Source: an uncultured Candidatus Saccharibacteria bacterium (lineage in GTDB: Bacteria > Patescibacteriota > Minisyncoccia > Phycocordibacterales > SW-6-46-9). Taken from it: a stretch of DNA of 64,000 bases. The notes beneath the pieces were generated by a model. That model was not told the origin of the DNA. It did not search any database and was given only the letters and a program-made list of their open reading frames with translations. This document shows positions 26,783 through 43,756 of this stretch, in pieces. Each line of letters starts with the position of its first letter. The first letter of the stretch is position 1. The stretch spans positions 8,138-72,137 of the forward strand of contig CAZHOI010000002.1 of the NCBI GenBank assembly GCA_964534365.1, given 5' to 3'. A program made the position numbers and the translations under genes.

Positions 26783-27358
26783 TTATTTTTTTGAGGTATA
26801 ATTTTTTATATTTTCCTTCTCTGTTGTAGTCAGATTTCTGTTCAAATCTTCCAAATATGTAGTCGGTAGATCAATCGGTAAGTCATTGTCAACAATTTTG
26901 TATCTGGCAAATCTGCGATTATGCGCACTCCCCCATTTCCAATCTTCTGCCTTATCTACTAAATTTGCCCTTTTTGCATTTCGTTCAATATAGCGAAGTA
27001 GATTGTAAAAATACTTATCGTCTCTAATATGAAAAGATTTATAACGACCTTGGTATAAATGACCAAATCCCACTTGACTATACTTAGATTTAAACCTTTT
27101 AACGTGAGTATTGGTTAGTCGGCGCATAAAATTACCTAATTCACCATTAATTTGTGGTGACACTAAAAGGTGCCAATGATTAGGCATTACGCAAAAACCC
27201 AAGACTTTGACATTGAACAAATCTTTGGTTTCATCAATTAATAATAGAAATTCTTGATAATCATTATTATCTTTAAAAATTTTAATCTTGTTATTTGATC
27301 GATTTAATACATGATAATACTCGCCTGCAATATCTGTTCTAGGTAAGCGGCCCATCAA
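26783..27358 (-). mobile_element. IS200/IS605-type HUH Y1 transposase, REP-associated tyrosine transposase (RAYT)-like
   Basis: HUH motif VMPNHWHLLV; conserved N-terminal YHVLNRSNN; C-terminal catalytic Tyr region; flanked on both sides by REP palindromes. Confidence 0.8.
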
Positions 27359-33439: not shown

Positions 33440-33590
33440 ATACCTTTATATTTGAATAGTTTTAGATATTTTCATCTTGTAAACCTTGTCACACCAGTTT
33501 AGGGTTCGCTATTGCCTCCAGGCGGACTGTGTCCGCCGTAGGGAGCTATGGCGACCGAAGCCAGTGAGTGAGGCCTGCCTTCCGCAGGCA

Positions 33591-33646
33591 GGGATTGGAA
33601 CCCTCGGTACCAATAAAGGTACGCTTCCTTAGCAGGGAAGCCCATT
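33591..33646 (-). pseudogene. Truncated tRNA-Ser-like fragment (anticodon arm, variable arm and T-arm only). It is a 56-nt paralogue of the adjacent tRNA-Ser 3' portion with compensatory changes in the variable-arm stem
   Basis: Identical 23-mer CTTCCTTAGCAGGGAAGCCCATT; variable stem GGTACC/GGTAC versus AGGCC/GGCCT; lacks the acceptor 5' strand and D-arm. Confidence 0.55.
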
Positions 33647-33665
33647 TTTACCCGACACACCAATG

Positions 33666-33752
33666 CGGAGGAAGAGGGATTCGAACCCTCGAGGCCCGTA
33701 AAGGCCTACTTCCTTAGCAGGGAAGCCCATTCGACCGCTCTGGCATTCCTCC
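33666..33752 (-). tRNA. tRNA-Ser (anticodon GCT), class II with long variable arm
   Basis: Minus-strand reading GGAGGAATGCCAGAGCGGTCGAATGGGCTTCCCTGCTAAGGAAG-(long var arm)-CGAGGGTTCGAATCCCTCTTCCTCCG; anticodon loop CT-GCT-AA. Confidence 0.75.
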
Positions 33753-37409: not shown

Positions 37410-37504
37410 ACTTCATTAATAAAGCTTGTCAACTGTCCCTGGCACCCTTTTCATGGCAGAGGTTACTTTAAAGCTAATTCTTCTCTTTCATAAAAGTCAC
37501 TACG

Positions 37505-37577
37505 TGCGCCCACCAGGACTTGAACCTGGGACCACAGAGGTATAAGCTCTGCGCTCTACCAACTGAGCTATAGGCGC
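37505..37577 (-). tRNA. tRNA with anticodon TAT (predicted tRNA-Ile reading AUA)
   Basis: Minus-strand GCGCCTA-TA-GCTCAGTTGGTAGAGC-G-CAGAG-CTTATAC-CTCTG-TGGTC-CCAGGTTCAAGTCCTGG-TGGGCGC-A; cloverleaf with one G-U in the acceptor stem. Confidence 0.7.
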
Positions 37578-39779: not shown

Positions 39780-41903
39780 TTATTCGGCAATTACAATAGC
39801 CGGCTGGGCTGGGGTTTCTTTTTTCGGCTTCAAACCGTGTTTAGTTATCAGTTTATTGAATTCTTCACGCTCGATCGTTTCTTGGTCAATTAATCGATGG
39901 GCAATTTCATCCAGTAGATCGCGATGCTTTTTTATTGCTGATGCCGCACGATCTTTGGCTTCATTAATTAGACGTGACACTTCAAAGTCAATCGCCTTGG
40001 CGACTTCCTCGGAATATTCAGACTGGTTTTTCATGCCATATAGTGGTGATCCCGTTTCCGTCTCCAGTGCAATTGGACCAATGTCATCAGACATCCCATA
40101 TCTGGCGACCATTGACCTGGCATTAGAGGTTACTTTTTCCAAATCATTTGATGGACCAGTTGACAGGTCGTCAAAAACTAGTTTTTCGGTAACGTAACCT
40201 CCTAATGACATTGCCATAATGTCGCGGAATTGTTTGCGAGTGCGTAGTTTTTTGTCTTCAAGCGGTAATGATAATACATAACCCAACGCTCGACCGCGCG
40301 ATACTATTGTGACCTTGTGTACGGGATCAGTATGTTCCAGGGCGGCTGAAACGACCGCGTGCCCCGCCTCGTGATAAGCTGTAACCCGCTTTTCTTGATC
40401 AGATAAAAGATGAGAACGCCGTTCAGGACCTAGCAGCACCTTTTCAATGGCCGCAGTAAAGTCCGATTGATCGATGGTTTTTTTATCATGGCGGGCCGCC
40501 AAAATTGCTGCTTCATTTACCAATGAATAAATGTCAGCGCCCGAGAATCCTGGTGTCCGTTCGGCGATCGTTTTGAAATTAACGTCCTCGGAAAGTGGTT
40601 TATTTTTAGCCTGAATTTCCAGGATCTTTTCGCGCCCCTTTCGATCGGGTGAATCCACCGTTACGCGACGATCGAATCGGCCGGGACGCAGTAGTGCGGG
40701 ATCCAGAACATCAGGGCGATTAGTGGCAGCCATAATAATTACTGTTTGATTTGGTTCAAACCCATCCATTTCCACTAAAATCTGGTTTAGGGTTTGTTCC
40801 CGTTCGTCGTTCCCACCGCCAGTTCCAATACCGCGCGAACGGCCCACCGCATCAATTTCATCAATAAATACAATTGCTGGGGCAACTTTTTTGGCCATTT
40901 TAAATAGATCACGCACCCTAGATGCTCCAACACCAACAAACATCTCGACAAATTCTGATCCTGAAATCGAGAAAAATGGCACTCCAGCCTCGCCAGCTAC
41001 GGCGCGCGCTAGCAATGTCTTTCCCGTTCCTGGCGCCCCCATCAGCAACACCCCTTTGGGAATTTGGGCTCCAATTTCGAGGAATTTTTTTGGGGTTTTC
41101 AGAAATTGAACAATCTCGACTAGCTCTTCTTTGGCTTCGTTAACGCCGGCAACGTCATCAAAAGTAACCTTTTTGCGGGGATCTTTGGGATCAATCATCC
41201 TGGCCTTGGACTGCCCAAAATTAAATGGCTGCATCCCCCCGCCACCCTTGACCTGGCGTGAAAGGTACCAAAATATGGCAATAATAATTAATAACGGCAG
41301 CAAAATTGGCAATAAATATCCTAGCCAGCTAGCGAGGGCTGAAGGGGCATGTTCGGTTATATCAATCGATCGCAATTGCTCGGAGCTCACCCCAAAATTT
41401 ATCAGCGAATCGGTAATTGCCGCATCGCTTTCTTTGCGGGTTTCGTAGCGGATTTCTTCTGTTTGGGTCAAGGCAACAACTTCATTGCCATCAACCTCCA
41501 ATTCAGTCACTTCACCAGCTTGAATTAAATTGGCCAGTTCTGACAATGAGATTTCTTCGGGATTAGTTTCGCTGGGATTGAGAACATTAAAAAATGAATA
41601 GGCCAGTAGCAGGATAATAAAAGTATTGATAAAGGCATTCATTTTGGGAGACCCCATAAAATACATCATATTTTTTGATGGTTTTTTGCTAGTTTTTGAT
41701 TTTTTGTTGCTACCACTAGACTTTGGACGTTTCAGTTTCAGTTTGTCAGACGGTCGACTACCTTTATTATTTTTTGATTTAATTTTATCTTTACTTCCTT
41801 TTTCCTTGGCTGATTTATCCTTTTTCTGGTCAGCTGGATCGGAACGATTGGCGTCTGGGGACATATAAAAGGTATTATGGACCAACAATAGCCAAAGTGC
41901 CAA
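39780..41903 (-). CDS. ftsH: ATP-dependent zinc metalloprotease FtsH, with unusually long Lys/Ser-rich N-terminal extension (real start may be Met14 at 41864 or later)
   Basis: AAA Walker [24 protein letters not shown]; SRH; HExxH (HEAGHA); two TM segments. Confidence 0.9.
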
Positions 41904-42382
41904 AAAACTATCTTTTGACCATGAAAAAAACTTCTAATCAATTTGCCAGCAATCAGCCCGCTAGCCAAAAGTATCGTCGCCTAGAATGTTACGAGGCGGG
42001 TATTAAATTGCTAGGTAGCGAGGTCAAGGCAGTCAAGGCAGGGCTTGCCGCAATAACCGGAGCATATGTGGTCGTGCGCGGCGGCGAAGCGTACGCAATT
42101 AATGTCACTATTCCCCAGTGGCAATCAAATAATCCTAGTTCGGCTCATGAACCAGAACGCCCTAAAAAACTACTGTTATCTAAAAAACAACTGCGCAAGT
42201 TGGAAGATTATGACCAGAAGAAAGGTTTTGCCTTGGTGGTTTATTCGTTGTATAATAAAAACGGTTTAATCAAGGTTGATTTGTGCGTGTCTGTTAATAA
42301 GACCACCCGCGACAAACGTCAAGAAATAAAACGACGTGATCAGGCGCGTGATATTAGACGGCAAACCAAATACAACCTTTAG
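41897..42382 (+). CDS. smpB: SsrA-binding protein SmpB
   Basis: GIKLLGSEVKAVK, PERPKKLLLSKKQL, C-terminal basic tail; tmRNA gene 460 bp downstream. Confidence 0.85.
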   Translation: MPKNYLLTMKKTSNQFASNQPASQKYRRLECYEAGIKLLGSEVKAVKAGLAAITGAYVVVRGGEAYAINVTIPQWQSNNPSSAHEPERPKKLLLSKKQLRKLEDYDQKKGFALVVYSLYNKNGLIKVDLCVSVNKTTRDKRQEIKRRDQARDIRRQTKYNL

Positions 42383-42429
42383 AGTACTTTCGCACTTTGA
42401 AATTTCAAATACAGTCATTCGCTTAAAGT

Positions 42430-42699
42430 ATGAATTACTATGTCTATATTCTATATAGTGAAAAAGACGGCAACTTATATGTTGGGTGTACATCTAATCT
42501 CAATAAAAGGATTAGATATCACTGCTTGGGTCATGTAAAAACAACCAAGCATCGTCGTCCTTTAAAGCTAATCCACAAAGAATTATTTGTAGAAAAGGGG
42601 CAAGCCTATAATCGAGAAAGGTTTTTAAAAAGTCTATGGGGATCTAGGGAAAAACAAAAAATTAAGAGGGAGTTTCTTGATAAGAAAAACCGAATTTAA
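42430..42699 (+). CDS. GIY-YIG domain nuclease-family protein (stand-alone, about 89 aa)
   Basis: YVYILYS...GNLYVGCTSNLNKRIRYH... matches GIY-YIG. Confidence 0.7.
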   Translation: MNYYVYILYSEKDGNLYVGCTSNLNKRIRYHCLGHVKTTKHRRPLKLIHKELFVEKGQAYNRERFLKSLWGSREKQKIKREFLDKKNRI

Positions 42700-42842
42700 A
42701 TTACCTACTCACAATAAAGATAGTTAAGACTAATTTCTTAATACTGAAGTCTCGAACAGTTTACGCGATAAGCAATGTTTTAGTGGCTAATCCCGCATTG
42801 CGGGACGCCAGAACATAAATTACTGGGTAATTTATGTTTTAG

Positions 42843-43239
42843 GGGGATGACTGGTATCGCCTCGAATAATTGTCAATCCAATGGCCAAACGGAAAACGCT
42901 GCCTACTTCCTTAAACTGGCAGTAACCAATACATGCAGACGAAAACTCTGTAGCGAGCCCATACTTTAATGGTGTTCGCGCATTTGCCTAAGTCGAGTTC
43001 GCTCCTTAGCAATGCCGGATAAAGCCTCTGGCTGACATTACTATGTTTTGTCCGTATCACCTTAATGTCTCGAGTTGGTGATCGTTAATCGCTGACTTTA
43101 AAAACTTAACTCGGATTTAGGATGTATTTGGATATTTGACCTCAACCTAGATCTTAAATTCCCTAACAAATATCCTTGGTTTGGGACACCATAAATTGGC
43201 ATTATTCGAACACGGGGGTTCAATCTCCCCATCTCCACA
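42843..43239 (+). ncRNA. ssrA: tmRNA (ssrA); predicted tag ADENSVASPYFNGVRAFA (resume codon GCA near 42945, stop TAA)
   Basis: 5' GGGGATGA...; 3' tRNA-like end GGGGGTTCAATCTCCCCATCTCCACA pairing with the 5' GGGGATG; internal ORF ending ...AFA-TAA; adjacent smpB. Confidence 0.75.
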
Positions 43240-43252
43240 TTGTAAATCCACG

Positions 43253-43273
43253 ACTGCCGTTTGGCAGTTTTTG
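43253..43273 (+). terminator. Intrinsic terminator after the tmRNA (CTGCCGTTTGGCAG plus TTTTT)
   Basis: Seen in the sequence. Confidence 0.6.
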
Positions 43274-43394
43274 ATTTGCAAATTGAGGAATGAGAGATTG
43301 AAAGACGGAATGACGCTGCCAGCGGCAGATTAAGTCATGAGTCCGGGTAGGAGCCACTTATGAGCAAAGCGAAATAGTGAGCTGACACCGATCC

Positions 43395-43406
43395 CCCCAT
43401 CTCCAC
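43395..43406 (+). repeat. Direct repeat of the tmRNA 3' terminus (CCCCATCTCCAC), about 168 bp downstream of the first copy, followed by a second terminator hairpin (43421-43447)
   Basis: 12-nt exact match to 43227-43238. Confidence 0.55.
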
Positions 43407-43756
43407 TCGACTTCATAATAAAACCAGACTTTTGTCTGGTTTTATTATTGCGCTCGTGGCAAACCACCTCGATCATACTGCACAAACATCCTTAACCTCA
43501 TACATTGTTTTAAAAGTAGTTACAAGAAGTCGAAGTGCCCTTAGTGAACATAGTGATAAGTAGTATCAAACCGGTCTCGAAACGAAGACCTGAAACTTAC
43601 CCAGTATCCAGATGGAAGACATGCTCATAGTAAGTAAAGATTAATCAAATAAAAGTTACCTAAGTAGAATGATTTTTTATTTAGGGGTCGGACCGCTAAA
43701 TTTTGGGGTAACCAGAAGTTGGTAGGGTTGCCATCATAAGCTACAATGATTGATAC

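Follow-up and report, generated by a model that had tools for sequence, protein, structure and literature searches.

A small non-coding cassette between two copies of the tmRNA gene's 3′ end in a Patescibacteria genome, and related cassettes across the Candidate Phyla Radiation

Introduction

Integration at genes for tRNA and transfer-messenger RNA (tmRNA) is the main entry route of genomic islands and prophages, and the elements known to use it are kb-sized and carry their own integrase. The locus analysed here lies in a 64-kb stretch of contig CAZHOI010000002.1 (hereafter ‘the window’, meaning the whole stretch), where the tmRNA gene ssrA follows smpB and is itself followed by a repeat of its own terminal nucleotides. 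An earlier note on this DNA had proposed an att-like scar, that is, a trace of integration at an attachment (att) site. We find that positions 43239–43406 are most likely a 168-bp cassette without an open reading frame (ORF), located at the ssrA 3′ end between two copies of the gene's terminal 12–16 nt. With a probability of roughly 0.55 we read it as a miniature, non-autonomous, site-specific integrative cassette, of which the window holds a copy that is now a fossil.

The window comes from an uncultured bacterium of the Candidate Phyla Radiation (CPR, Patescibacteria): among species-representative genomes the best matches to its SmpB belong to Saccharibacteria, Harrisonbacteria and similar lineages, with identities of at most 44%. 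Three public contigs of the organism are 100% identical across the locus.

Results

The end of ssrA is intact and is repeated 168 nt downstream

ARAGORN called a tmRNA at 42843–43238 with the tag peptide ADENSVASPYFNGVRAFA*, and Rfam model RF00023 matched 42843–43240 over its complete length (model positions 1–374) with 62.5 bits against a gathering score of 47. The acceptor stem GGGGATG/CATCTCC contains the G3:U70 pair and is followed by the discriminator A, while CCA is encoded only in part (…CCAC, then ATT). Because the ends given by the two programs, the acceptor stem and the partly encoded CCA agree, both the tmRNA call of the earlier note and the position it gave for the 3′ end stand. 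A group I intron or a permuted, two-piece tmRNA was considered and rejected: the standard model runs from end to end with no insertion on the 3′ side, and the permuted model reached an E value of only 0.22, on L091 (loci of the comparison set are designated L plus a number). The ssrA gene of the window is thus intact, and the features at and beyond its end are as follows.

42843–43238 (+), ssrA, the tmRNA gene (ARAGORN; Rfam RF00023 full length), with the tag reading frame at 42935–42991
43223–43238 (+), repeat copy 1 (attL-like core), formed by the final 16 nt of ssrA, which run from mid T-loop through the discriminator and the C after it
43252–43273 (+), terminator 1 (terminator scan; hairpin 43252–43269 plus T-run), inside the inserted segment and now terminating ssrA; it is the centre of inverted repeat I1
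43285–43302 (+), INV, the ssrA 3′ end in reverse complement and degenerate form (GAGGAATGAGAGATTGAA against GTGGAGATGGGGAGATTGAA), identified through I1
43297–43390 (+), cassette body without an ORF, with nhmmer homology to L011, L128 and L004
43391–43406 (+), repeat copy 2 (DIR, attR-like), ATCCCCCCATCTCCAC, identified by repeat comparison
43407–43448 (+), native ssrA 3′ flank, TCGACTTCA plus the bidirectional terminator 2 (match to L130; perfect inverted repeat)

The terminal 12-mer CCCCATCTCCAC occurs exactly twice in the 64 kb (43227–43238 and 43395–43406), and still only twice when one mismatch is allowed; shuffled sequences predict 0.22 occurrences, and none of 100 shuffles reached two. 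The worry voiced in the earlier note, that the 12-mer might recur many times, is thereby removed for the window. With one mismatch the repeat extends to 16 nt, ATC[T/C]CCCCATCTCCAC (43223–43238 and 43391–43406, spacing 168), and begins inside the T-loop of ssrA. Together with the preceding CG, copy 2 (43389–43406) resembles the stretch from T-loop to 3′ end in the ssrA genes of relatives: those of L127 and L129 finish with ...AATCCCCCCATCTCCAC, and the T-loop in L130 is TTCGATC. The mismatched position is itself polymorphic among these genes: the C of copy 2, which makes a perfect GGGGG/CCCCC T-stem, is the state of L127 and L129, and the T of copy 1 that of L128 and L130. Terminator 2 is a perfect 15-nt inverted repeat (43415–43429/43434–43448) with A and T runs at its sides. 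The repeat count, the terminator scan and this inverted repeat bear out the earlier description of a duplicated tmRNA terminus with a separate terminator for each copy.

That description had missed the inverted repeat I1, which is 40 nt long, 73% complementary (43219–43258/43263–43302) and centred on terminator 1. Terminator 1 and the final 20 nt of ssrA make up its first arm; the spacer therefore also contains the ssrA 3′ end in an inverted, degenerate form, listed above as INV. The 155-bp spacer contains no ORF; its body carries the conserved motifs ATTGAAAGACGGAA (43297–43310), GAGTCCGGGT (43339–43348) and GACACCGA, and two weak hairpins at about 43315–43328 and 43351–43383. A displaced fragment of the tmRNA gene was rejected as its source, no homology to tmRNA longer than the 16-nt match being found, and Rfam yielded nothing near threshold for either the spacer or the intact cassettes described below.

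Relatives have the site empty or occupied by a similar unit

Five syntenic loci were reached through SmpB homologues of 51–66% identity. In L130 the ssrA end is joined directly to TCGACTTCA and an A/T-flanked terminator, the same flank that copy 2 has in the window (nhmmer, window 43386–43439 to L130 2055–2108, E 2e-3). The insert is likewise absent from L127 and L129, while L128 has a homologous spacer (nhmmer E 7e-3) whose second repeat copy has decayed to AATCTCCCTATTTCCTC. Because L130 joins the ssrA end to the flank of copy 2, we conclude that 43239–43406 is a repeat-bounded insertion or deletion of the kind made at an att site, and that copy 2 with its flank is the older ssrA 3′ end. The presence/absence polymorphism thus has exact boundaries, which lie at the repeat. 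For the window, the expected junction of the empty site is ...GGGGGTTCAATC[T/C]CCCCATCTCCAC joined to TCGACTTCATAAT, and that of a circularised cassette ...GAGCTGACACCGATC[C/T]CCCCATCTCCAC joined to ATTGTAAATCCACGAC.

The earlier note had suggested looking for larger insertions between 43240 and 43395 in related genomes. None of the relatives has a larger island at this site, which is either empty or holds the same kind of small ORF-less unit. The att-type duplication and the idea that the spacer is what remains of an inserted element therefore survive, supported by the empty site of L130; the view of the spacer as anonymous debris of a large element does not.

The spacer belongs to a family of structured cassettes at ssrA

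We fetched about 60 distinct CPR ssrA loci through SmpB; the comparison as a whole took in about 145 CPR loci. In the set of about 60, the ssrA end recurs 129–200 nt downstream with a score of at least 11 in the window, L004, L008, L012, L027 and L061; the remaining loci score at most 9, and mostly at most 7.5. Further cases are L091/L093, L128, L011 and L342. Homologous ORF-less units of about 110–200 nt follow ssrA in CPR lineages distant from one another, namely L128, the Saccharibacteria loci L011 and L004, L012 and a Yanofskybacteria-like group. The window spacer matches L011 with an nhmmer E value of 1.4e-4 and L004, in iteration 2, with 6e-5; spacers of the window type share ATTGAAAGACGGAA, GAGTCNGGGT and GACCGA, after which comes the direct copy. 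The Yanofskybacteria-like group has two further unit types, A and B, built on the same plan. The spacer thus belongs to a family of conserved, structured cassettes found repeatedly at ssrA in different CPR phyla, and we found no description of this family in the literature searched. Global identity of the window-type bodies, compared with that of the tmRNAs, was uninformative at such divergence.

The shared plan is a terminator, then INV (an inverted copy of the T-loop, the T-stem 3′ strand and the acceptor 3′ strand of ssrA), two hairpins, and finally the direct copy DIR, which starts from C56 of the T-loop. INV is split by the first hairpin (hp1) in type B, L011 and L004, and it follows the T-loop and T-stem sequence of its host: 12/12 positions agree in L004, and 13/13 plus 10/10 in L091. 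It carries GGAGATG, the Watson–Crick complement of the gene strand, not the GGGGATG of the tmRNA 5′ strand; a helix of INV and DIR is therefore equivalent to the gene's DNA duplex, not to the fold of the RNA. The DIR of type A tracks the acceptor variant of the host (CAGATCC in L061 and L008, CATCTCC in L027) even though type A has no internal partner for DIR, a pattern expected of recombination or duplication there and not of RNA pairing. The repeats are 12–58 nt long across the cassettes and are copies of the gene end; the longest, in L004 (58 nt), includes the terminator.

Units occur in tandem and in shuffled order: A then B in L061; B, a fragment of A and a fragment of B in L091; B then a truncated A in L342. 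L027 and L334 have A only, and L339–L341 have no cassette. Three different arrangements are found among strains whose SmpB proteins are at least 90% identical. The units themselves are highly conserved: identity reaches 93% for type B (L061 and L091) and 91% for type A (L027 and L061), as compared to 79–81% for the last 200 nt of tmRNA in the same pairs of loci. In the 64-kb window and the approximately 145 loci, searches with bodies and hairpins matched ssrA-adjacent positions only.

All cassettes except that of the window fold far better than shuffled sequences, on both strands (z −3 to −9). In eight distinct sequences hp1 is 100% paired, and 6 of its 9 pairs have changed on both sides, which none of 500 shuffles reaches. 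The G:U pairs number 31 and 29 on the two strands; because they are equally frequent on both, there is no sign that one strand, as RNA or as single-stranded DNA, is the selected form, and the folding cannot serve as a strand-specific test of RNA against DNA. The window copy lacks hp1 and its INV is degenerate, and it looks like a decayed member of the family.

A tyrosine recombinase is linked to ssrA in one group

The Yanofskybacteria-like group encodes a tyrosine recombinase (PF00589, SAM-like domains at the N terminus) on the strand opposite to ssrA. Its gene lies 0.4–2 kb beyond ssrA and ahead of rpsO, and the ORFs in the interval from ssrA vary from strain to strain.

L027, 8125–9048 (−), ssrA-linked tyrosine recombinase
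L112, 2360–3265, the same
L342, 7274–8194, the same
L344, 5862–6902, the same
L061, 2314–2436, the same; here the gene adjoins the B cassette

L339 has neither recombinase nor cassette. Beyond the recombinase we found no distal repeat with at most 3 mismatches in 16; a match at +3288 in L027 was discarded as a distal att copy, since it lies within a coding region. The DNA that separates the recombinase start from rpsO includes a conserved, non-coding and structured-looking sequence of about 300 nt, which has no Rfam match.

A phage or plasmid origin of the cassette was also considered and dropped: blastn against GenBank phages returned nothing, and a scan of IMG/VR with ATTGAAAGACGGAA produced chance matches only. 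A second IMG/VR scan, for two copies of CCATCTCCAC 140–170 nt apart, gave 83 matches, none of them with a tmRNA. We likewise rejected a repetitive extragenic palindrome (REP) system with its REP-associated tyrosine transposase (RAYT), the REPIN arrangement: a Y1 transposase is present in the window and beside the ssrA gene of L075, yet the cassette hairpins are not dispersed. The Y1 gene of the window is IS200-like (26783–27358, −; PF01797, 1.6e-17), and that of L075 (8915–9619) is RAYT-like and lies between palindromes, 65 nt after the ssrA end.

Discussion

A miniature integrative cassette as the preferred reading

A miniature integrative cassette would account for the locus as follows. The unit comprises a terminator, INV, two or three hairpins and a DIR that starts mid T-loop; it would most likely be inserted by site-specific recombination of its ssrA-end copy with the end of the gene itself, in a reaction that would be the one used by tRNA- and tmRNA-targeting islands. 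As the cassette brings its own intrinsic terminator, ssrA would be left both intact and terminated after insertion. Catalysis would have to take place in trans, because the cassette encodes nothing. We infer its mobility, the involvement of a recombinase and the nature of the substrate, double- or single-stranded, from sequence comparison. The window copy is probably an immobile fossil that has lost the first hairpin and most of the fold.

Several observations weigh against this reading. The presence/absence pattern is unpolarised without a phylogeny, and loss by recombination between the repeats fits it as well as gain. The boundaries of the units are not fully consistent with one simple model, because the terminator ahead of the type B body is not always the same: it is term-B in L061 and L091 but term-C in L342 and L112. 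The window copy is thermodynamically unremarkable, with a fold z-score of −0.6 to −0.75. No recombinase was found in the window, either by tblastn with the L027 enzyme or by Pfam searches of ten candidate ORFs, and neither the GenBank phage collection nor the two IMG/VR pattern scans contained a full-length parent element or phage with these ends. Finally, neither an excised circle nor an empty-site read or junction came to light in the assembled contigs analysed, of which the three of this organism are identical.

The same anatomy could be the scar of a large island or prophage with its own integrase, in which an internal deletion left the DNA adjacent to attL and attR; the small units would then be fused island ends that are not mobile, and their conservation would reflect the arm and core sites of the recombinase of one widespread CPR island family. 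A repeat that starts mid T-loop and a replacement 3′ end with a terminator are standard island anatomy (PMC4383910, PMC3146451), one clade does have a tyrosine recombinase and variable cargo downstream of ssrA, and truncated units are common. What makes us regard this explanation as unlikely is that neither the approximately 145 CPR loci nor the phage database nor IMG/VR showed a full-length element with both ends, that the size of 110–200 nt is repeated in unrelated lineages, and that complete tandem units in varying order, 91–93% identical between hosts, would not result from independent deletions. Still less credit is due to a local accident, in which a chance 12-mer, or slippage or template switching around a terminator hairpin, produced the duplication with no element involved. 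A local alignment of the tmRNA with the 520 nt downstream reaches a z of only about 3, with one shuffle scoring higher, and fold-back synthesis could yield an inverted copy beside a hairpin; but the match ends precisely with the 3′ terminus of ssrA, many independent lineages have this arrangement together with a homologous spacer, and the flank of copy 2 is the native flank of L130. We disfavour this account and consider it very improbable.

Between these two in probability, and to our minds rather improbable, is a functional structured RNA or cis-acting 3′ module of ssrA. Transcribed by read-through or from its own promoter, such a module would form a rod or three-way junction whose closing helix uses the ssrA-like 3′ end, and it might affect 3′ processing or termination of the tmRNA or act as a tRNA-like decoy. 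The very low folding energies and the compensatory changes in hp1 are in keeping with this, as are the conserved framework with swapped hairpin stems in the B subtypes, the conserved CGGAAG loop, and the position of every unit between two terminators on the ssrA strand. However, INV pairs with DIR into the helix of the gene's DNA duplex (A3–U70, T-loop paired) and not into the tmRNA fold (G3:U70, T-arm hairpin), and the G:U pairs show no strand bias (31 vs 29). A terminator stands upstream of INV, and neither a scan of the window nor reading of the sequences revealed a consistent promoter. The distribution is patchy among close relatives, Rfam has no matching family, and the window copy barely folds.

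Comparison with known elements

The closest known systems are islands at ssrA and at tRNA genes. In the ssrA-targeting genomic islands of Dehalococcoides the direct repeat of the ssrA end begins mid T-loop (PMC3146451), and the use of the 3′ end of the single-copy tmRNA gene as target, a repeat from mid T-loop and restoration of the gene are common to these islands, to tDNA islands in general (Islander, PMC4383910) and to the cassette. In the window the 16-nt direct repeat of the 3′ part of the target bounds the insert and ssrA is regenerated; occupied loci (L128 and the window) stand beside empty ones (L130, L127 and L129), with boundaries at the repeat. Like the cassettes, ssrA islands form tandem arrays downstream of ssrA, some units of which lack recombination genes. 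Known islands are, however, kb-sized and bear an integrase, either the serine recombinase DsiB, which is CcrB-like, or a tyrosine recombinase, whereas the cassettes span 110–200 nt without an ORF; the 155-bp spacer of the window has no integrase gene inside it. The cassettes are one to two orders of magnitude smaller, and two further differences from known islands are the terminator and the inverted target copy that each unit brings along.

Cis-mobilisable elements (CIMEs) are att-flanked, lack an integrase and are moved by the enzymes of a related element; they are kb-sized deletion derivatives of integrative and conjugative elements (ICEs) and carry cargo. The cassettes resemble them in their attL- and attR-like flanking repeats, in being units without recombination or transfer genes, and in tandem ‘accretion’ at one site. 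They are unlike CIMEs in size and in the lack of cargo, and no parent ICE or island is known for them. The Yanofskybacteria-like group has a tyrosine recombinase near ssrA, without a flanking distal repeat, and none was found in the window. Miniature inverted-repeat transposable elements (MITEs) share with the cassettes a small size, the lack of ORFs and of autonomy, inverted sequences at the termini and direct repeats at the flanks; unlike the cassettes, which were seen only at ssrA and with repeats of 12–58 nt, they are dispersed in many copies and make short target duplications of fixed length. No dispersed copy turned up in the window or the approximately 145 loci.

Folded single strands serve as recombination sites in integron attC and in the attP(+) hairpin of CTX-phi. 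As in these, the cassettes have two inverted, target-like half-sites tens of nt apart that could pair to mimic a double-stranded target, their structure is kept more than their sequence, and ORF-less cassettes are arrayed beside one fixed site. In contrast to attC and CTX-phi, the cassette loci are without an integron integrase, the GTTRRRY core or a dif/Xer target, and G:U pairing indicates no preferred strand. They are not integron cassettes: on reading the sequences and the Pfam labels, RYYYAAC/GTTRRRY cores and IntI/attI are lacking, and the cores are copies of the ssrA end. By analogy with attC or the CTX-phi hairpin, we offer a more specific and tentative proposal, to which we give distinctly less weight than to the miniature cassette as such. 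The cassettes may be an undescribed class of CPR elements in which the INV and DIR pair mimics a double-stranded att site, that is, a self-folding attP aimed at the tmRNA gene, served in trans by a Xer-like tyrosine recombinase and supplied with a replacement terminator. The idea of CIMEs, for its part, is cited in the Dehalococcoides study (PMC3146451).

A family of 110–200-nt units that apparently requires no more than a terminator, hairpins and two target copies would approach the minimum of information required for site-specific insertion. It would offer a handle on the mobile DNA of CPR bacteria, whose mobilome is barely characterised, and a candidate recombinase/target pair, perhaps a tool for organisms without genetics. 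For annotation, repeated tmRNA 3′ ends in CPR genomes should be taken as cassettes and not as assembly errors or second genes. For the window alone the biological consequence is small, ssrA being intact and the cassette apparently dead.

Neighbouring genes and flanking DNA

Two genes precede ssrA.

41921–42382 (+), smpB, SsrA-binding protein of 153 aa (PF01668, 1.4e-38), start ATG 41921
42430–42699 (+), stand-alone GIY-YIG nuclease-domain protein of 89 aa (PF01541, 2.2e-15, residues 2–72), between smpB and ssrA

The start of smpB is likely the ATG at 41921 and not the in-frame upstream GTG at 41897 chosen in the earlier note, because the gene is called with 153 aa in the three identical public contigs.

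The GIY-YIG gene had been taken for a sign of a mobile homing module, which our analysis does not bear out. The protein has the catalytic domain expected of a homing endonuclease of the I-TevI type, and this is its single domain: Pfam found no C-terminal DNA-binding domain, Rfam detected no intron, and there is no intein context. Its role is unproven, because cassettes are common at loci without a GIY-YIG gene. At the position between smpB and ssrA the gene is absent from L127, L129 and L130 and present in L128, L048, L104 and L112; the correlation with the cassette holds in the five closest relatives and fails in L004, L011, L012, L027, L061 and L091. GIY-YIG as cassette cargo was rejected as well: a DIR-like sequence after the GIY-YIG gene of L339 differs by 5 edits in 19, not above chance, and L051 has none. 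We regard the gene as context of the duplication, its membership in which is unsupported.

Small genes encoding only a GIY-YIG domain (about 85–91 aa) are neighbours of ssrA in several CPR lineages that are not related, some between smpB and ssrA, others right after ssrA (L128 2268–2543, L048 532–783, L104 8434–8676, L112 525–788, L051 7379–7603 and L340 2782–3039). In the window the insertion point is just after a conserved AGTCATTCGCTTAAAG (42413–42428). The 9-mer ATGTTTTAG stands directly 5′ of the tmRNA (42834–42842), with a second copy 59 nt upstream (42775–42783) in the 3′ region of the GIY-YIG gene; in L048 the 9-mer is found three times, within units of about 85 nt (790–960). These repeats could be a duplicated leader, promoter or 5′-boundary sequence tied to insertion of the GIY-YIG gene.

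Downstream, about 300 nt of non-coding DNA (43449–43756) separate terminator 2 from a YkuD gene and have no homologue in the relatives; at the corresponding place L128 has an unrelated 138-aa ORF of unknown family. A flank TCGACT(T/C) right after the ssrA end or its displaced copy is common to very distant CPR lineages (window 43407–43415, L011 7074–7105, L075 8850–8860, L130 2085–2093). Further downstream (window 43453–43467) the window and L011 have CTCGTGGCAA(A/G)CCAC in common, and the flanks of L051 and L113 contain the related motifs CTCGCTTACGCTC plus a GTGCAA(A)GCAC hairpin.

Other RNA genes

In one subgroup of the Yanofskybacteria-like loci the 5′ region of the tmRNA (pseudoknot 1) contains an additional stem-loop of about 170 nt (L091 2091–2668, L107/L108, L342 4443–4955, L344–L346); ARAGORN misses these tmRNAs or reports an extended tag for them (AVERRPSG...ANYNSNYALAYA). 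On the minus strand of the window (33580–33752) ARAGORN reports two overlapping tRNA-Ser(GCT) genes, 33580–33669 and 33665–33752, of which Rfam recognises the second only. A tRNA-Ile gene at 37504–37577 (−) has the anticodon TAT, which is unusual for bacteria.

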